Shown here: positions 1,914 to 44,638 of the stretch, piece by piece
Layout: each line of letters starts with the position of its first letter
Position numbering within the stretch: the stretch's first letter is position 1
Assembly (NCBI GenBank): GCA_964415565.1
Contig: CAYQAV010000131.1
Location: 291 to 64,290, forward strand
Source of the DNA: an uncultured Candidatus Peribacteria bacterium
Lineage (GTDB): Bacteria > Patescibacteriota > Gracilibacteria > BD1-5 > UBA6164
Direction of reading: 5' to 3'
Length of the DNA: 64,000 nt
Notes under the pieces: generated by a model
Seen by the model: only the letters and a program-made list of their open reading frames with translations
Told to the model about the DNA's origin: nothing
Database searches by the model: none
Made by a program: the position numbers and the translations under genes

Positions 1914-4511
1914 TTATACTCTAATTTTTTTAATATTTCCATTGTTTATTTTATTAAATAATGGATTTATTTTTTCTTTAATTTTAGTAGTTTCATCTAA
2001 ATTTACTTCATTTAATTCAAAATTTTCTTTAGATAAATCTATTTGCTCAACTTGTTCTATTTTTTTGATAGAAAATATAGCTTTTACAACTTTATATTCG
2101 ATTTCGTTTATTAAATCTCTAAATTTGTAATATGCTTTTTCTTTATAAACAGTTAAAGGATTTTTTCCGCTATATCATTCAAAAGCAACTTCTTCTCTAA
2201 GTTTACTCATTGCATCAATATGTCTCATCCAAAGTTCATCAATAGAACTTAAAACTATCCTTCTTTCTAAATTTAAATATTCATTTTCTGAAGCTGCATC
2301 TCTTTTTAAACTTTCAAATTCTTCAAAAGCTATATTAGAAATATATTTTGATAATTCTTCAGGATTAGAAATTCAAGATATATCATCAATTTCTATCTTG
2401 TCATTTAGAGCATCAATTCATAAAAATTCATTTACTTTTTTTATTATTTTATTGTTTGATGATTTACTAATATTTTCATTTTTTGAAAACTCAGCAGTAA
2501 CTAGAGTAGAAATTTGATTTTCAATCGTATTTCTTATATCCTCATGAATATTTTCACTATCAAGAATTTTATTTCTTCTAGAGTAAATTATATTTCTATG
2601 TTTATTTATAACATCATCGTATTCTAAAATATGTTTTCTTACATCAAAGTTATGTCATTCTACTTGTTTTTGAACTCAAGTAACTCTTTTTGTAAGCATT
2701 CCACTTTGAGCTAAAGGTTCGTCATCTGGAAGGGAAGCAAACATTGGTGAATTAAATACTGAAAATAATTTATCTCAACCAAAAATTCTCATGATATCAT
2801 CATTTGGTGAAATTAAAAATTGAGTAATTCAAGGATCTCATTGTCTACCAGCTCTTCATCTTAATTGGTTATCAATTCTTCTTGTTTCATGTTTTTCAGT
2901 ACCAAGAATTATTAATCAACCTAAATCAGCAACTCATTCTCATAATTTTATATCTGTACCTCTTCAAGCCATATTTGTAGCAATTGTTATTGCTGATTTT
3001 TGACCAGCATTAGCTACTATTTCAGCTTCTCTTTCATGATATTTAGCATTTAAAACATTGTGTTTTATACCTTCTGCTTTTAATCTTTCACTTAGATATT
3101 CACTTTTTTCAACTGAAACTGTACCAACAAGGATTGGTTGTCCAGTTGCATTCATTTCTTTTATAAGTCTAACTACATAATCAAATTTACCTTTTTCATT
3201 TTTGAAAAGTAAATCTGGTCTATCTTCTCTAGCTATTGGTTTATTTGTAGGGATTACAAGTGTATCAAGTCAGTATACTTTGTAAAATTCTTCAGCTTCT
3301 GTAACTGCAGTACCAGTCATACCAGCCAATTTCCAATACATTCTAAAATAATTTTGAAATGTTATTGAAGCCAATGTTTTACTTTCTTGTTTTATTTCTA
3401 CATTTTCTTTTGCTTCTATTGCTTGGTGAAGTCATTCAGAGTATCTTCTACCTGCTAAAACCCTACCTGTATGTTCATCAACTATTTGAACTTCTCAGTT
3501 TAAAACTAAATAATCTTTATCTTTATGATAAACTGCCATAGCTTTAAGTGCATTTTCTACATGATGAATATCATTATAATGATTTGAAACATATATATTA
3601 TCTATTCTTAATAATTCTTCTATTTTTTTAATTCAATCTTCAGTTAGAGTAGCTGTTTTTTGTTTTTCGTCTATCTTGTAATGAATACCATTTTGTAAAT
3701 GTTTTATAAGTGCAGCAAATTGCATATATTTGCTAGTTGGTTCATTGTCAGGCATAGAAATAATAAGTGGAGTTCTAGCTTCATCAATAAGGATAGAATC
3801 AACTTCATCTATAATAGCAAAAAATAATTTACTTTGAGCTTTTTCATCTTTTGAAATAACCATATTATCTCTAAGATAATCAAAACCTAATTCATTGTTT
3901 GTAGCATAAACTATATCACAAGAATAAGCAGCCTTTTTATCAAATTTATTTTGAGAATTTACAACAACTCAAGTTGTTAATCAAAGTGTACCATATAAGA
4001 TCCCCATTTCTCCACTATCTCTAGCAGCTAGGTAATCATTTACAGTAACAATATGAACACTATTTCAAGTAAGTGCATTTAAGTAAGCAGGAAGAGTAGC
4101 AACTAATGTTTTTCATTCTCAAGTTTTCATCTCACTTATATTTCATTCGTGAATTGCTAAACCTCAGATAAGTTGAACATTATAAGGAATCATATTCCAA
4201 GTTACACTTCTACCATCTTTTAATTCAAAAGTTTTACCATTTATAAGTTTTGCAGCAGTTTTTACCAACGCAAAAGCTTCACATTTTATAGTATTTAATA
4301 TTTCTTTTATTTTTTTTGTATCTTCTAAATCTCTAAAATTTAGTCATTCAAACAATTTTTTAAACTCTGCAGTTTTATTTTGTATATCTTCTAAAGTGAA
4401 TTTTTCTTGAGCTTTTTCAAATTCTTTTATTTTTTCTACAAGGCGAGAAATTTCTTTTACTTTCTTTTCACTAGGGTCTCCAAATATGGCTTTAATAATG
4501 CTTTCTATCAT
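1914..4511 (-). CDS. secA: preprotein translocase ATPase SecA (865 aa)
   Basis: N-terminus [25 protein letters not shown]. Motifs [71 protein letters not shown]. Track fragments 3633..3863 and 2964..3155 are in the same frame and join through TGA=Gly. Confidence 0.95.
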
Positions 4512-8078: not shown

Positions 8079-10700
8079 ATGTTTGATATGGGTATTAAAG
8101 TTATTAAAACAAGAGATTGAGATTTGTTACACTTCGATAGAAGTAGAATAGAGAGAGTTATAGAAAAAGCAGCCGAAAGTGTATGAGAAAAAAACCTAGA
8201 TTTTGTAGATTTTATAACTGATAATGTAATTCAAGCATTAGAGTTAAAATTAGAAAAATTTGATAAATCTCAGTTTATAACTGTTGAAATGATTCAAGAC
8301 CAAGTAGAAAGAGAATTAATGGAATCTTGATATTTTCAAGTAATGAAACATTTTATTATCTACAGAAGTAAAAGAGCCGAAGCAAGAGAAAAAGCAAAAG
8401 AAAAAGTAGAAAAAAAATTATCTGAAAATACATTTAAAATTATTAAAACTACTTGAAAAAAAGAAAGTTTTGATATGGATAAAATAGAAAAAACTTATAA
8501 AATCGTAAGTTATTGATTAGCTAGAAAATGTAGATTTGAAGAAATAAGTGATAGTTTTAGAAAATATATCGTTGAATGAATGAAAACAAACGATATAACT
8601 AAGATGCTTATTAAATCAGCTATAGATTTGATTTCTATTGAAAATACTTCTTGGCAATTTATTGCTTGAAGATTGGCTTTAATTGATTTGTATAAAGAAG
8701 CTTCAAACAATAGAAAAATGGATATCAAAAAAATATATGAAGCAAAACATTATGCTGAATTATTTGATGAATATGTAAAATTATGATTATATTCTAAAAA
8801 TTTCTATAATTATTATACAAAAGAAGATATTTTAGAAGCAGGTAAATACTTGAAAAAAGATTATGATTTTGAATACAATTATACAACTATTTTGATGTAT
8901 AAAAAAAGATATCTTTTAAATCCAAATAAGAAAATAAAAGAATTACCTCAAGAAATGTATATGAGTATTGCTCTATTTTTAGCTATGCCTGAACCAAAGG
9001 AAAATAGATTAAAAATTGCAAAAAAGATATATGATTATTGTGCTACTGGTAAAATTTCTCTACCAACTCCAACTCTATTAAATGCTAGAACAAATTTTCA
9101 TCAATTATCTAGTTGTTTTAAATTTAATGTTGAAGATGATTTAAGAGCAATTTATCATTCTATTGAAAATATGGCACAAGTTTCTAAATTTTGAGGATGA
9201 ATTTGAGTTTATCTTTGAAATATTAGAAGTAGAGGGGCAAATATTAGATGAGTAAAAGGTGCTGCAGGTTGAGTTAATCCTTGGATTAAAGTTATAAATG
9301 ATACTGCAGTTGCAGTAAATCAATTGTGAGCTAGAGCTTGAGCAATAAGTGTAACTTTAGATGTTTTTCATAGAGATATATATAGTTTTCTTGATATTCA
9401 AACTGAAACTTGAGATATAAGAAATAAAAGTTTTGATGTATTTCCAGCGGTTTCATTTCCAGATTTATTTATGGAAAGAGTAGCAAATGATGAAAATTGG
9501 ACACTTTTTGATCCAAAAGAAGTAACTGATTTTACAGGTAAAAAATTACAAGATCACTTTTGAGCTGAATTTGAAGTTTTTTATTCTGAGTGTGAAAAAA
9601 ATGAAAAATTAGAATTAAAAGAAGTTATTTCTGCAAGAGATTTGTTTAAAAAATTTTTAAAAGCAACTGTTGAAACTGGTATGCCTTATGCATTTTTTAG
9701 AGATACAGTAAATAAAGCAAATCCAAATAAACATGCTTGAAATATATATTCAACTCAACTTTGTGTTGAAATATGTCAAAATACAAGTCCTTCTAAATTT
9801 ATAGAAGAAACAATTGAAGATGGAAAAATAATTATAAAATACGAGCCAGGAGATAGCGTAGTTTGTAACCTAGCATCAATAAATGTTGCAAAAGTTAATA
9901 CTCCTGACGATATCAAAAAAGTACTTCCAGTTGCTATGAGATTACTTGATAATGTAATTGATTTAAATTTCTATCCTATAAAAGAAGCTGAAAAAACTGC
10001 AAAAAAATATAGATCTGTTTGACTTGGATTTTTATGACTTGCTGAATATTTAGCTGTAAATAAATTGGCATACGATAGTAAAGAAGCAAGAACAGTTGTT
10101 GATGAATTATTTGAAAAATATGCATATCAAACTCTTAAATCTTCAAATGAATTAGCAACAGAAAGAGGAACTTATGAAGTTTATAAATGAAGTGAATGGT
10201 CTAAATGAATATTATTTCAAAAAGATGCTAATTGGTTTAGAAATAATTCAAAAATGAGTGCTGACTGGTTAGAATTAATAGAAAATATTAAAAAAACTTG
10301 AGTAAGATTTGCTTATCACTTAGCTCCAGCACCAAATACTTCTACTGCTTTAGTAGTTGGTACAACAGCTTCAATTTTACCTATTTATAAAAAATATTTT
10401 GTTGAAACAAATGCAATTGCACCAAGTGTAAATGTGGCACCAAACTTAGATGAAGAAAATTTTTGGTATTACAAAGAATATGTAAATATGAATATGAATG
10501 ATGTAATTGATATGGTTTCAGTTATATATAAATGGATAGATCAATCAATCTCATTTGAATGGATGATAAACCCTGCAAATGTTTCTCCAAAAGAGCTTTA
10601 TGAATACTATTTTAAAGCACATAGAGAATGAATTAAAACAGTTTATTATGTTAGATCTATGAGTCTTGAAGTAAAAGAATGTGTAAGTTGTAGTTGATAA
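8079..10700 (+). CDS. nrdA: class I ribonucleotide reductase alpha subunit with N-terminal ATP-cone (873 aa)
   Basis: ATP-cone VIKTRDGDLLHFDRSRIERVI. LPTPTLLNARTNFHQLSSCF. KFGGGIGVYLGNIRSRGANIRG with TGA at 9192, 9198, 9204. STQLCVEI. C-terminal CVSCSG. ATG at 8088 is an alternative start. Confidence 0.9.
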
Positions 10701-19553: not shown

Positions 19554-19581
19554 AAAAAAAACTGCCAAAGGCAGTTTTTTA
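19554..19581. terminator. bidirectional terminator shared by nrdB and trxB
   Basis: A-run, stem actgcc/ggcagt, T-run, lying between two convergent stops. Confidence 0.75.
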
Positions 19582-20496: not shown

Positions 20497-20718
20497 TTTT
20501 AAATATTAGTTATTATTAATAAAATAATTTATAAAAATTATTTATGAAAGTATTTTAATAAGTTTCTATACTTTGTAAAGTAAATTTTATTATTATGAGA
20601 ATTATTCTCATTTATTAAAATTAATATAGGATTCAGAAATATTTAATTGACTTATATAATATTTTATTTATATTTATATTACTTTTTCAATTTTTTTCCT
20701 AAAAGGAGGAGGTTAATT

Positions 20719-21003
20719 ATGAATAAGCCTATTCCTATGAGTGGAAAAGGATATACTAAAACTAGCCGAAAAATTTGGCTTATGAAATATGAAAGGGATA
20801 CTTTTAATATTGAAGCAGCTTTTGCTAAAAAAGAAAAACAAGAGTTTGATTTTGAAAATAGAGTTGAAATTTCTTTATTAAAACAAAACAATCTATTAAT
20901 TATTCCAACTTGTTTTTGTATAAAAGAGAAAAAAAAGTTTTCCATATTTTACTTTATTATGGGATTAATCTTTTCTTTCTTTAAAATGATTAAGTCATCC
21001 TGA
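20719..21003 (+). CDS. small basic/hydrophobic protein, 94 aa if TGA terminates (106 aa, to 21039, if TGA=Gly)
   Basis: Canonical SD aaggaggagg (20703-20712) 6 nt before ATG 20719. No internal TGA. TTGACT-N16-TATATT promoter-like sequence from 20648. C-terminal hydrophobic helix FSIFYFIMGLIFSFF. TGA 21001 lies in a terminator stem. Confidence 0.45.
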   Translation: MNKPIPMSGKGYTKTSRKIWLMKYERDTFNIEAAFAKKEKQEFDFENRVEISLLKQNNLLIIPTCFCIKEKKKFSIFYFIMGLIFSFFKMIKSS

Positions 21004-21022
21004 TTTTCAGGATGGCTTTTTT
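20994..21022 (+). terminator. intrinsic terminator overlapping the TGA of the small ORF
   Basis: Stem catcctg/caggatg followed by gcttttttc. Confidence 0.65.
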
Positions 21023-21086
21023 CTTTAAGTATTTGATAAAATTAAGAAAAAATATAGAATACAATAAATAAAATTATAAAAAATAT

Positions 21087-31802: not shown

Positions 31803-31833
31803 AAAACTAGGAACCGAAGGTTCCTAGTTTTTT
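31801..31833. terminator. bidirectional terminator
   Basis: aaaaaaCTAGGAACC-gaa-GGTTCCTAGtttttt between convergent genes. Confidence 0.75.
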
Positions 31834-41716: not shown

Positions 41717-43711
41717 ATGGAATTAAAAACAAAGATTATAAACGAGTTAAAAAATAAAAATTTTCCAGACTTAAAATTTCTTATGAGTGTTGAAGTTTTA
41801 GAATTGGCAACTGAGATATTAAATGAAGAATTAGAAAATGAAAAAACAAAATTTGAAGATATTTTAAAAAAAGAAAATTCATCCCTAACTTTTGATAGTT
41901 TTGAAGATGATTCTATTCTTGATTATTTTTGGAGTTTATTAAATCATTTTGAAAATGTAGAATCAAGTGAAAAACTTAGAAATATAATAGAAGATTTTAG
42001 ACCAAAATTACAAGATTTTTGAAATGAAGTTGCTTATAATAAGCCTTATTTTGAAAAAGTTAAATATGTAAATGAAAATTTAAAACTTGATACAGAGCAA
42101 AAGAGAATAATGGATTTGAGAATAAAATCATATATAGATAGATGAATTGATTTAGCAGTTGAACAACAAGAAGAAATCAAAAAAATAAACAAAAAACTAG
42201 GAGAATTAAGTGATAAATTCACAAATAATATAGTAGATGACCAAAAAACTTTTGAGTATTTAATTATTGATTTTGAGCTTATAAAAGATTTGCCAAATGA
42301 AGTTTTGGAAATTGCAAAAGAAGCTTGAAGTGAAAAGTGATGATATCTTTTTGATAGTGATCCAACAAGTTATTCTGCTATTATGAAATATTGTTCTAGT
42401 CAGGAAATAAGACAAGATTTTGAAAAAGCTTCTTATACAACTGCATCAAATTGAAAATTTGATAATAGAAAAATAGTTTTAGAATTATTAAAACTAAAAG
42501 ATACAAAATCAAAATTGCTTTGATATAAAAATTATGCAGAACTTAGTTTAAATGATAAGATGGCAGATTCTCCAGAACAAGTTTTTGAATTATTAAATTC
42601 TATAAGTGAAAAAGCTATAAAAAAAGCAGATTTAGATATACAAGAATTGAAAGATTATTTTTCACTAGATAATATAGAAACTTATGATTTAGGTTATTAC
42701 ACAAGGATATTAAAAGAAAAAAAATATGATTTAGACGAAAAAGAGATAAAAAAATATTTTGAATTTGAAGATGTTTTAAATTATCTACATAGATTTGTAG
42801 AAAATTTTTACTCTATAGAAATAAAAGAAACAAAGATTGAATCATACAATAGTGAAGTAAGAGTTTACGAAATATATAAAGATAATAAATTAATTTCTTA
42901 TTATTTTTTAGATGCATTTTATAGAAAAGGGAAAAGACCAGGTGCTTGGGCTGATAACTTGAGAGAAAAAATGTATTTTCCAGAATCAAGTGTTCCAGTT
43001 ATCTTAAATGTTTGTAATTTTCAAAAGGCAAATAATTGAAAAACAACTCTTTATTTAAGAGATGTTGAAACAATCTTTCATGAATTTGGACATGCACTTC
43101 ACGAAATGCTTTCTGAAAGTAAATATAGTGAATTATCAGGTTTTTGAGTTGAGTGGGATTTTGTAGAACTTCCAAGTCAATTGCTTGAAAATTGGGTAAG
43201 TGATAAAGATAGTTTAAAAAAATTATCAAAACATATTGAAACTTGAGAAAATTTTAGTGAAGAAATTATGTCAAAATTGGAAAAATTGAAGACTTTTATG
43301 ACTTGAGTTTTTGTTGCTAGACAAAATGAATTTGCACTTTTAGATATGAATTTATACAGTTCTGAAATTCCTGACAATATAGAACAACTAGATAAAAAAA
43401 TACTTGAAATAGTAAACAAATATAGCATCTTTAAAAGATTAGATGATTACAAGATGTATTGTTCTTTTAATCATATATTTGGTTGATGATATGCAGCAGG
43501 TTATTATTCATACACTTGGGCAGAAATAATTGAAGCAGATATTTTTTCAAGAATCAAAGAAATGTGAATGTTTGAAAAATCAACATGAGAAAAATTTCTA
43601 AAAACTATTTTATGACAATGAACTAGAAAAAAAGCGACAGAGTTATTTTTTGATTTTATGTGAAGAGAAGTTGAAAATGAAGCATATATGAAAAGATATT
43701 GATTAATATAA
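41717..43711 (+). CDS. M3-family zinc metallopeptidase (oligopeptidase A / dipeptidyl carboxypeptidase type, 664 aa)
   Basis: [11 protein letters not shown] zinc motif, [32 protein letters not shown]. Track ORFs 41717..42022 and 42560..43039 are in the same frame. Confidence 0.85.
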
Positions 43712-43713
43712 TC

Positions 43714-43748
43714 AAAAACCCCACGCATGCGTGGGGTTTTTCTTTTTT
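43714..43748. terminator. GC-rich bidirectional terminator
   Basis: aaaaaCCCCACGCatGCGTGGGGttttt. This is the only G+C-rich terminator stem I saw in the window. Confidence 0.75.
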
Positions 43749-44504
43749 TCAAAATCTGAGATGCAATCTATCTTTTAATTTCAGATAGAATGACGCAAAT
43801 GTGAAGATAGCACTAATCACAAGTAATATTCCACCAATATAGTCAAGATATAAATCAAACCTGTTAAGGCTGACTACATATATGGTAATTACTTTAAATA
43901 CTGTTTTTGTTTTTCCGACCCAATTTGCTGCAGGGTTGCTAGTTTTTGATCTCATGAATTGACCAGCGATGTCTACCATTGAGATAAATATCGCAGTAAA
44001 TACAAAAAAGTTATTATTAGCAAACAAGCAAACTATTGCAAGGATTATTAAGTCCAAGAATTTGTCTGCAAATGGGTCTAATACTTTTCCCAAGTTTGTT
44101 ACATTATTCAAGCTCCTTGCAACTGCACCATCAAGTGCATCGGTTACGAATAAAAACACATAGAATTGCAATAAAATTGAGCTAATTACAGTTTCTTTGT
44201 AAAAGATTACTGTAATTATTGCCAATGGTATAGAGAGATAAACTCTCCACATGCAAATTCCATTTCCGGATAGGAGAGGTGCATCAATATAAAGTTTAAA
44301 CCTTTCAATTGTATTTACAGGTTCTATTTCATACTTATGAATAGCAAAACACTCTCTTATTTTTCTATATCGAAGTCCTCTGTAAACAATCCAAAGAATA
44401 ACGATAACAACTATCAAACTACTCAAAAATTCCATTTGTAAAATTTGATTTTCAGCAAAAGAATTTTTTAGCAGTAGAAACTCTAATGCATAATTATCAA
44501 ACAT
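43749..44504 (-). CDS. CDP-alcohol phosphatidyltransferase family membrane protein (251 aa as a standard-code ORF)
   Basis: DALDGAVARSLNNVTNLGKVLDPFADKFLD = D-G-x2-A-R-x8-G-x3-D-x3-D signature. SD GGAGG 7 nt before the ATG. No internal TGA. The apparent stop is TGA (43749-43751). Under code 25 it would extend 31 codons to TAA at 43656-43658. Confidence 0.85.
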   Translation of the reverse strand: MFDNYALEFLLLKNSFAENQILQMEFLSSLIVVIVILWIVYRGLRYRKIRECFAIHKYEIEPVNTIERFKLYIDAPLLSGNGICMWRVYLSIPLAIITVIFYKETVISSILLQFYVFLFVTDALDGAVARSLNNVTNLGKVLDPFADKFLDLIILAIVCLFANNNFFVFTAIFISMVDIAGQFMRSKTSNPAANWVGKTKTVFKVITIYVVSLNRFDLYLDYIGGILLVISAIFTFASFYLKLKDRLHLRF

Positions 44505-44638
44505 GACACTTCCTCCAAAAGCAAAAATTTGATGTTATTTATTTTAGATTAATATTATAAATAGTCAAGAATAAAATTTGTTTTGATTTAATATTTATTT
44601 TAAATATTATAAAACTAATTAATTAATAAAAAAAATAG

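Follow-up and report, generated by a model that had tools for sequence, protein, structure and literature searches.

A UGA-free, Shine-Dalgarno-led phosphatidyltransferase gene resident in UGA=Gly genomes of a Gracilibacteria-type lineage

The locus

We have analysed a stretch of 64,000 nucleotides (the window) from contig CAYQAV010000131.1 of assembly GCA_964415565.1, an uncultured Candidatus Peribacteria bacterium that the GTDB taxonomy places in the Gracilibacteria (BD1-5, UBA6164). The gene under study, hereafter the focal gene, lies on the minus strand at 43752-44504 and is predicted to code for a PgsA-like CDP-alcohol phosphatidyltransferase. Within a genome that reads UGA as glycine it has the style of a standard-code gene, with no sense TGA, a Shine-Dalgarno (SD) sequence, a terminator of its own and atypical codon usage, as a first-pass annotation made from the letters alone had claimed, and the UGA-free state is shared by all the orthologues described below. 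The open reading frame (ORF) of 251 codons, its nine glycine codons without TGA and the TGA at its end were all found where that annotation had placed them. The locus is made up of the following features:

44563..44568, minus strand: -35 box TTGACT of a consensus sigma70-type promoter, invariant in the eight aligned syntenic orthologues
44541..44546, minus strand: -10 box TAAAAT, 16 nt past the -35 box; the spacer and the TAnnnT pattern are kept in the orthologues
44512..44516, minus strand: SD sequence GGAGG, 7 nt 5' of the ATG; duplex of -9.3 kcal/mol as scored against the canonical anti-SD, which may not be the organism's own
43752..44504, minus strand: coding sequence of 251 sense codons for the PgsA-like CDP-alcohol phosphatidyltransferase, with no in-frame TGA (ATG at 44504-44502)
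43749..43751, minus strand: TGA ending the conserved protein, read as stop by the standard code and as Gly by the resident one
43656..43748, minus strand: extension if that TGA is read as Gly, 31 codons with the TGA at 43749-43751 as the first
43714..43741, both strands: bidirectional intrinsic terminator AAAAACCCCACG-catg-CGTGGGGTTTTT, common to the focal gene and the convergent peptidase gene
41717..43711, plus strand: convergent neighbour, a native peptidase M3 (oligoendopeptidase F-like) gene with 19 TGA and 8 GGN codons
44639..45655, plus strand: divergent neighbour, the native gene for TsaD with 15 TGA and 6 GGN codons, in conserved synteny

The 5' untranslated region (UTR) is about 35 nt long and carries the SD, the GGAGG reported by the annotation 7 nt before the ATG being present at 44516-44512. 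Six of the nine glycine codons are GGA and three are GGT; the annotation had put the chance of finding no TGA among them at about 1e-4, but the figure was conservative and we computed 6.5e-6. Its impression of a gene richer in G+C than the neighbours also held, since the GC content (0.311) is the highest among the window genes and the GC content at third codon positions (GC3) is 0.263 against 0.06-0.19 in all other window genes. The terminator hairpin starts 3 nt past the stop of the peptidase M3 gene and, with 6 GC pairs, is the richest of the window, but not the only G+C-rich one as had been thought: three more hairpins have at least 4 GC pairs (19556-19580, 20992-21018 and 31803-31831). Reading the TGA as Gly does add 31 residues that run into the peptidase gene, as the annotation had it. 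The ORF under code 25 has 282 codons and ends at 43656; its extension runs through the terminator and shares 56 nt with the end of the peptidase M3 gene.

Genetic code and native genes of the window

Under code 11 the window has no more than five ORFs of 100 amino acids (aa) or longer, whereas 65 appear once TGA is taken as a sense codon, and the four long code-11 ORFs other than the focal gene are glycine-poor parts of bigger genes that do contain TGA. In the 56 native genes of the window TGA makes up 815 of the 1109 glycine codons (73%), the other 294 being GGN. The invariant Walker-A glycines are written TGA in SecA (MKT-TGA-E-TGA-KT), HflX, an ABC ATPase and ComM, and a TGA codon also specifies the glycine of the HLG motif of TyrRS. 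With TGA at these invariant positions, the code of the window is therefore UGA=Gly (code 25). No tRNA or rRNA gene was found by tRNA and Rfam scans of the window. Genomes of BD1-5 have been described without prfB (PMC6851277), and a possible UGA/UGG ambiguity has been described for tRNA-Gly(UCA) (PMC8629427).

The use of TGA is not the same in all native genes. Many of them reach 85-100% TGA among their glycine codons, and the share is lower in genes whose high expression we presume from their identity: 11 of 52 (21%) in DnaK (L090 1450-3363), 15 of 35 (43%) in MetK (L090 4769-5896), 25 of 51 (49%) in SecA (window 1914-4511), 4 of 11 in a thioredoxin-like gene and 0 of 4 in a small lipoprotein (L081 4762-5031). 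These genomes thus treat UGA as a non-preferred codon. The gene for ribosomal protein L25 has four TGA among seven glycine codons and lacks an SD. Actually, SD sequences are missing from 55 of the 57 window genes, so the absence that the annotation had noticed at about 12 starts extends to nearly all of them, but a second gene, at 20719, carries a strong SD as well as the focal gene.

Absence of UGA across the family

A protein search gave about 42 clusters at 45-100% identity, and those with a named source are proteins of metagenome-assembled genomes (MAGs) of Gracilibacteria or Patescibacteria; below them there is a gap and then generic PgsA. At the DNA level we collected 15 distinct orthologues (45-89% identity), all in UGA=Gly sequence. 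Eight are syntenic (the window, L081, L082, which is the same as L095 and L097, L001, L084, L086, L092 and L094) and seven are deeper (L088, L089, L090, L091, L098, L099 and L102).

None of the 166 glycine codons in the 15 orthologues is an in-frame TGA, compared to 2725 of 3749 (73%) in their neighbours. With six deep lineages counted as independent, the probability of this is about 1e-33, and the 95% upper bound on the TGA share is 1.8%. A pattern scan of metagenomes in which the glycine codon was left open to TGA (KGN) found six loci, all of them TGA-free. In an alignment of 30 proteins, Gly82, Gly126, Gly139, Gly181 and Gly197 are all invariant G, and since protein calls made under code 4 would have W there, no TGA stands at these columns, in agreement with the DNA. 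The invariant columns alternate between GGA, GGT, GGG and GGC, never TGA, and about 25 variable glycine columns are likewise never TGA. Three short database proteins that seemed to be split by internal TGAs give no evidence of one: the gene of P0021 is full-length and starts with GTG, P0029 comes from a low-quality draft with Ns and frameshifts, and P0075 has a full-length cluster mate of 244 aa with G at all glycine columns.

Inertia is excluded, because the focal gene evolves faster than its neighbours. Protein identity to the window is 0.60-0.84 for the focal gene and 0.56-0.99 for the neighbours, the focal gene falling below nearly every one of them, and identical codons are found at 0.53-0.75 of the identical residues against 0.60-0.95. 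Where a neighbour gene of the window has GGN for a conserved glycine, the other genome has TGA in 43-53% of the cases. Furthermore, out-of-frame TGA is frequent in the family (60 and 122 occurrences in 3649 codons), so selection acts on decoding and not on the trinucleotide. The L088 orthologue has a normal GC3 (0.094) and still no TGA among ten glycine codons, so that G+C content does not account for the missing UGA. Since out-of-frame TGA is abundant and neighbours on the same strand, such as the gene for uracil-DNA glycosylase (UDG), are rich in TGA, we also reject gene conversion, strand or skew effects and an antisense or overlapping ORF as causes of the in-frame loss. Taken over the family, these comparisons show a UGA-free state that is evidently kept, all-or-none, by purifying selection on the reading frame.

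Promoter, SD, terminator and companion genes

An SD-like motif (AGGAGG, AAGGA or GGTGGAG) lies 5-9 nt before the start in 15 of the 15 orthologues, and the promoter pattern TTGAC[T/A]-16-TAnnnT, 61-72 nt 5' of the start, is present in all 13 that were scanned from the true start, the deepest included. For the other two, L091 and L092, the scan had started from an internal ATG; in L092 the box can be seen in the alignment. The terminator hairpins of the orthologues are kept through compensatory changes (GCCACGC/GCGTGGC, CCGCCTAGGCGG, GCCGCTTAAGCGGC, CCAGAGC/GCTCTGG). The promoter, the SD and the lack of UGA are thus conserved among orthologues down to about 45% protein identity.

Nearly all other genes have neither a -35 box nor an SD. 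In the window the promoter pattern precedes 2 of the 57 genes, the same two that carry an SD. Over the window and 15 loci (about 236 genes), 204 genes have none of the three properties (promoter, SD, TGA-free state), 16 gene instances have all three, and the promoter is found without the SD or the TGA-free state in three native genes, among them the dnaK of L090, which is preceded by TTGACA-16-TAnnnT.

The second gene of this kind in the window forms a cassette of the same style:

20647..21026, plus strand: whole cassette, with -35 box TTGACT at 20647-20652 and -10 box TATATT at 20669-20674 (16-nt spacer)
20703-20712, plus strand: SD sequence AAGGAGGAGG
20719-21000, plus strand: ORF of 94 TGA-free codons, four of them GGA, in which CGA is used
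21001-21003, plus strand: TGA within the terminator stem CATCCTGA/TCAGGATG, with the T-tract to 21026

This cassette, including its CGA codons and the position of the TGA, is conserved in L101 (9911-10303), which belongs to the same genome as L081. The product is an ORFan without a Pfam match and has a C-terminal transmembrane helix (tail-anchored). In addition, L082 (and also L095 and L097) has a gene of 139 codons with the same signals inserted just upstream of the focal gene (9927-10346), with no TGA among ten glycine codons, and further small SD-led TGA-free genes are found in L090 (3453-3773, minus strand) and L091 (3840-4076, minus strand). The small genes of these three loci have GC-rich terminators and 2-3 homologues in 5.8 billion proteins. 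No homology was found between the accessory genes of L082 and L090, both of which adjoin the focal gene. The companion genes are ORFans, and most of their products are small membrane proteins. SD-led, TGA-free genes form a small class, whose exclusivity and size refer to the window and the orthologue loci, about 0.3 Mb of UGA=Gly sequence in total, and not to whole genomes.

The 5' part of the ORF for holB (DNA polymerase III delta') contains a conserved AAAGGAGGTGAA followed by GTG (window 33885, minus strand; L081 17515; L082 17675). This may be the true SD-led start of a TGA-containing gene, and would then be the sole exception to the link between the SD and the TGA-free state.

The terminal TGA

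The position of the TGA that ends the protein is conserved in the sub-clade of the window (L081, L082/L095/L097 and the public protein predictions P0004-P0011, where it appears as W or G past the last conserved residue). In the deep orthologues a longer C-terminal helix is followed by TAA or TAG, and in the sub-clade of the window the C-terminus is shortened, with the conserved TGA and then the terminator, the downstream region being conserved solely as a hairpin. Neither the sequence nor the length of the read-through extension is conserved (31, 22 and 18 codons, the TGA counted), and the in-frame TAA or TAG, where there is one, lies beyond the T-tract of the terminator. Native genes carry TAA where the focal gene and gene 20719 have TGA. 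As prfB is absent from the group (PMC6851277), UGA should be read as Gly, and judging from these ends resident decoding should either add 18-31 unconserved residues to the protein or, where the transcript has been terminated, leave a messenger RNA (mRNA) without a stop.

In the public predictions P0002-P0011, gene callers working in code 4 or 25 extend the protein past the terminal TGA or fuse upstream sequence to it, and the same gene is predicted with lengths from 248 to 417 aa. In practical terms, the database entries of this family bear spurious C-terminal tails, and such genes could be used as internal controls for tools that infer the genetic code.

Residency of the gene

The gene order L25 ... 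TyrRS ... TsaD, focal gene, peptidase M3, UDG ... is identical in all the syntenic loci, and the same arrangement, with both junctions, recurs across at least eight independent assemblies (NCBI, ENA, JGI and Logan). The convergent peptidase M3 partner is retained in the deep orthologues L089, L098 and L099. Around the orthologues the neighbour genes have TGA at 64-85% of their glycine codons, with lower shares in L090, where the gene is beside dnaK and metK (36%), and in the GC-richer L102 (14%). Outside the family and a sister tier, the matches in genomes, phages and plasmids are generic PgsA at 26-42% identity; viral contigs, INPHARED phages and PLSDB plasmids gave no family member, and a scan of genome contigs returned mostly generic pgsA and one true orthologue, L001. 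The sister tier consists of shorter proteins at 36-46% identity from unplaced sources, one of them annotated in a Tenacibaculum MAG.

The first-pass annotation had read the pattern as a recent import from a standard-code donor, with mis-assembly as the alternative, and neither idea survived. A chimera or a contaminating contig would have in its favour only the atypical composition, and it is ruled out by the recurrence of the same junctions on both sides in those independent assemblies, leaving it a negligible probability. If the gene had come horizontally from a donor using the standard code, together with its promoter, SD and terminator, and had not had time to ameliorate, this would account for the atypical composition and codon usage, and by GC3, lack of TGA and rare codons the gene does resemble a recent alien gene. 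Also, the accessory SD-led ORFans (L082 9927, L090 3773 and window 20719), with 2-3 homologues each, could be recent imports. Against this, the locus is occupied in all syntenic relatives and the gene is present in the deep ones, all 15 orthologues are in UGA=Gly genomes and the eight closest keep the full gene order, and the promoter, the SD and the TGA-free state persist to 45% identity, where synonymous change is saturated, while TGA and GGN turn over fast in the neighbours; neither a donor clade nor a mobile element or reservoir was found. The presence of UGA=Gly orthologues, the synteny and the divergence down to 45% identity refute a recent acquisition, and as an explanation of the whole pattern acquisition is very improbable. 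A much older transfer, at the root of the clade and before the family radiated, is conceivable, and the sister tier with its one Tenacibaculum MAG protein is compatible with it.

The gene has the vertical inheritance and the conserved gene order of an ordinary code-25 native gene, but not its use of TGA nor its lack of SD and -35 box. Sense TGA codons in code-25 relatives had been named by the annotation as what would speak against an import; the closest relatives are indeed code-25, but their copies are TGA-free, and the foreign look is therefore better described as a long-standing condition that selection has kept in a resident gene. As far as gene order and orthologues can tell, the focal gene is evidently an old, vertically inherited resident of a UGA=Gly lineage of Gracilibacteria type.

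Three observations on the surroundings of the gene deserve mention. Compared with the window, L001 is a mosaic in which the peptidase M3 and TyrRS are 91-92% identical, TsaD 81% and the focal gene 74%, which suggests recombination between lineages around the locus. In L086 (12844-14384 and 15375-15581) a reverse transcriptase and bAvd pair, that is, a diversity-generating retroelement, lies beside the peptidase M3 gene, and near it there is a Gly-rich, TGA-free and GC3-rich ORF of 68 codons that may be its variable or template region. Finally, in an ENA contig of 1376 bp (P0043) the C-terminal half of the transferase (75% identical) is fused to a DUF5131 (phage Gp37/Gp68) protein; this is probably an assembly chimera, though it could be a real disruption.

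Codon usage and mRNA folding

The codon use of the focal family is shifted to both C- and G-ending codons. GC3 is 0.15-0.36 in 14 of the 15 orthologues and is above that of the neighbours in 13, staying at about 0.2-0.36 irrespective of the AT drift of the genome; in L102 it equals that of the neighbours, which are themselves GC-rich. The shift includes codons that are rare in native genes and presumably poorly decoded (CGA, CTC, CCG and GTC). CGA is found in 8 of the 3635 codons of the family, at basic columns that include invariant Arg columns, against 1 of 59,708 native codons of the window and 14 loci, in which CGG and CGC occur three times each. The SD-led genes use CGA at Arg positions. 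In related lineages (Absconditabacteria) CGA and CGG are predicted to be undergoing reassignment (PMC8629427), and the lineage studied here may be at the "unassigned" stage of that process.

The shift in non-glycine codons does not follow that of the native genes with low TGA (rho 0.11, p=0.43), whose GC3 is 0.109 and thus not raised. The mRNA of the focal gene is predicted to be far more stably folded than its synonymous shuffles (z from -4.0 to -5.7 in the window, L082, L084 and L086), compared to z from -2.8 to +0.9, about -0.5, in ten native genes submitted to the same test. No conserved helices with covariation were found in the mRNA of the family (covariation term +4.27).

The encoded protein

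The Pfam profile PF01066 matches residues 81-236 along positions 5-151 of its 152 with 78.9 bits, well above the cut-off of 22 (E=7e-22). The catalytic signature D122-x2-D125-G126-x2-A129-R130-x8-G139-x3-D143-x3-D147 is complete (DALDGAVARSLNNVTNLGKVLDPFADK), and its residues D122, D125, G126, A129, R130, G139, D143 and D147 are invariant in alignments of 30 and of 35 sequences. An AlphaFold2 model, with a predicted local distance difference test (pLDDT) of 88.2 and a predicted template modelling score (pTM) of 0.84, has only family members among its top PDB matches; the best are 7DRK and 7DRJ, with a template modelling score (TM-score) of about 0.7, target-normalised, over a six-helix membrane core. 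Profile, signature and polytopic all-helical fold thus all agree with membership in the CDP-alcohol phosphatidyltransferase family.

The PgsA of Staphylococcus aureus (7DRJ/7DRK; TIGR00560) is the best match in both sequence (profile match to 7DRJ with E=3e-32) and fold, with the full signature and the six-helix core in common. However, the focal protein is only 25-26% identical to it and has some 75 extra N-terminal residues, with a long helix pair and the motif SAPLLSGNGICMWR. Because of this extension and of a score of 79.9 bits against the TIGR00560 equivalog, under its cut-off of 109.1, we name the protein PgsA-like and not PgsA; its predicted function is that of a PgsA-like CDP-alcohol phosphatidyltransferase. 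These lineages have been described from their genomes as unable to make their own lipids (PMC6851277, PMC8080830), and a conserved head-group transferase would fit the remodelling of scavenged lipids. The enzyme is not mentioned in the text or supplements of a metaproteomic paper on Gracilibacteria.

Possible explanations

The mechanism that we prefer, tentatively and at somewhat less than an even chance, is that the gene belongs to a small SD-led set translated in the resident cell independently of the UGA-decoding tRNA-Gly(UCA). The consensus promoter, the 5' UTR with its SD, the UGA-free ORF and the intrinsic terminator make up a self-contained classical cassette. Ribosomes would be loaded onto its transcript through SD pairing and not by the default SD-less route of the genome, and whenever the decoding of UGA is limiting, unreliable or under attack, the cell would still obtain a complete and accurate enzyme. 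Such a UGA-independent channel accounts for the all-or-none avoidance and for the link with the SD, but not for the GC3 or the terminal UGA. Several points weigh against it. The raised GC3 and the stable mRNA folding are not explained by it, and the terminal UGA of the sub-clade and of gene 20719 is awkward, being no stop without release factor 2 (RF2) and leaving stop-less transcripts if read as Gly. Besides, DnaK shares the promoter type and has a low TGA share (21%), which amounts to a partial overlap with ordinary high expression, and a limiting or switched-off UGA decoding lacks direct evidence in these organisms.

That overlap is the basis of an unlikely but serious alternative, extreme translational optimisation, in which the gene would be among the most expressed of the cell and UGA would be slow or error-prone, its young tRNA being confusable with Trp decoding. 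The graded drop of TGA in DnaK, MetK, SecA, the thioredoxin-like gene and the small lipoprotein is what it predicts, and the same promoter type before the dnaK of L090, together with the consensus promoter, strong SD and stabilising terminator of the focal gene, are classical features of high expression. But 0 of 166 is far beyond the 21% of DnaK, and a lipid head-group transferase is not expected to outrank chaperones; L25 has four TGA among its seven glycine codons and no SD, the non-glycine shift does not correlate with that of the native low-TGA genes (rho 0.11), whose GC3 (0.109) is not raised, the near-extinct codons CGA, CTC, CCG and GTC are used, and stop-less transcripts in the sub-clade of the window would waste the output. 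More improbable still would be an expression of the cassette by standard-code machinery, most simply in the host or prey of an episymbiont, or after frequent export of the gene. It does cover every feature: the sigma70 promoter, the SD, the total absence of sense UGA, the intrinsic terminators, the UGA at the stop position of two unrelated cassettes (the focal one and 20719), CGA as Arg, a less extreme codon use with GC3 of 0.2-0.36 despite the AT drift, the faster evolution of the protein compared to its neighbours and the membrane-protein products; standard-code phages linked to these hosts also avoid TGA (PMC10746230). However, there is no known route by which chromosomal DNA or mRNA of such bacteria would reach a host, the genes lie dispersed between housekeeping genes in conserved synteny, with no border repeats, transfer genes or mobile element nearby, the standard-code genomes, phages and plasmids searched gave no close copy, and the use of the promoter type by the native dnaK means that these signals are usable in the resident cell. 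A weaker variant of this idea would have UGA read as both Gly and stop according to its position near the transcript end. TGA might also have been lost as a by-product of a local rise in G+C, brought about by GC-biased gene conversion, by a recombination hot spot or by a constraint on mRNA structure. Such a purely compositional cause would find some favour in the raised GC3 of most orthologues, the stable mRNA folding and the mosaic of L001. Yet the odds of TGA to GGN, scaled by the GC3 shift, still predict by our estimate about 45% TGA and not 0%, the avoidance is strictly in-frame and not shared by the flanking genes, L088 is TGA-free with a normal GC3, and no conserved covarying helices were found, so that this cause is about as remote as acquisition, if not slightly more. 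The explanations that we reject together hold only a minor part of the probability, and what remains goes to causes not yet considered.

Comparison with known systems and significance

We have found no report in the literature of UGA=Gly bacteria in which cellular genes stay without the reassigned codon. Among the nearest concepts are the TGA-avoiding "code-agnostic" standard-code phages predicted for Gracilibacteria and Absconditabacteria (Liu et al. 2023, PMC10746230), whose genes, tied to UGA=Gly hosts and without TGA, give the same product under either code. However, those are whole phage genomes, with host range as the proposed reason for the avoidance, whereas the focal gene is chromosomal, syntenic and by all appearances vertically inherited. 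In Flavobacterium johnsoniae, rpsU is a lone SD-led gene in an SD-blind lineage, translated by ribosomes that lack bS21 (PMC9976891, PMC13000453). As here, a nearly SD-free genome keeps a strong and conserved SD on very few genes, and there the SD is a separate translational channel used for regulation, but no codon reassignment is involved and the gene codes for a ribosomal protein that regulates itself. Moreover, Gracilibacteria often lack bS21 (PMC9297842), and the mechanism therefore cannot be the same. Stop-codon-recoded phages have code-neutral early genes and recoded late genes (bioRxiv 10.1101/2021.08.26.457843), so that the presence of the reassigned codon decides which genes are translated in which decoding state; in their case the partition is temporal and takes place in a standard-code host, whereas no decoding switch is known in UGA=Gly bacteria. 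For an expression by standard-code machinery the analogue would be the T-DNA genes of Agrobacterium, with their host-style signals, and if the focal cassette were truly expressed in a host or prey it would be a bacterial counterpart of them.

Codon reassignment is usually taken as genome-wide. Here a gene family and a few companions have stayed outside it through a long radiation, and the same family keeps a distinct signature of transcription and translation initiation, which indicates that decoding UGA as Gly has a gene-specific cost or risk visible to selection. These genes offer a handle on three questions: how reliable or regulated the new decoding is, what role the SD plays in SD-poor lineages, and whether these host-dependent bacteria use a transferase of their own to remodel scavenged lipids.

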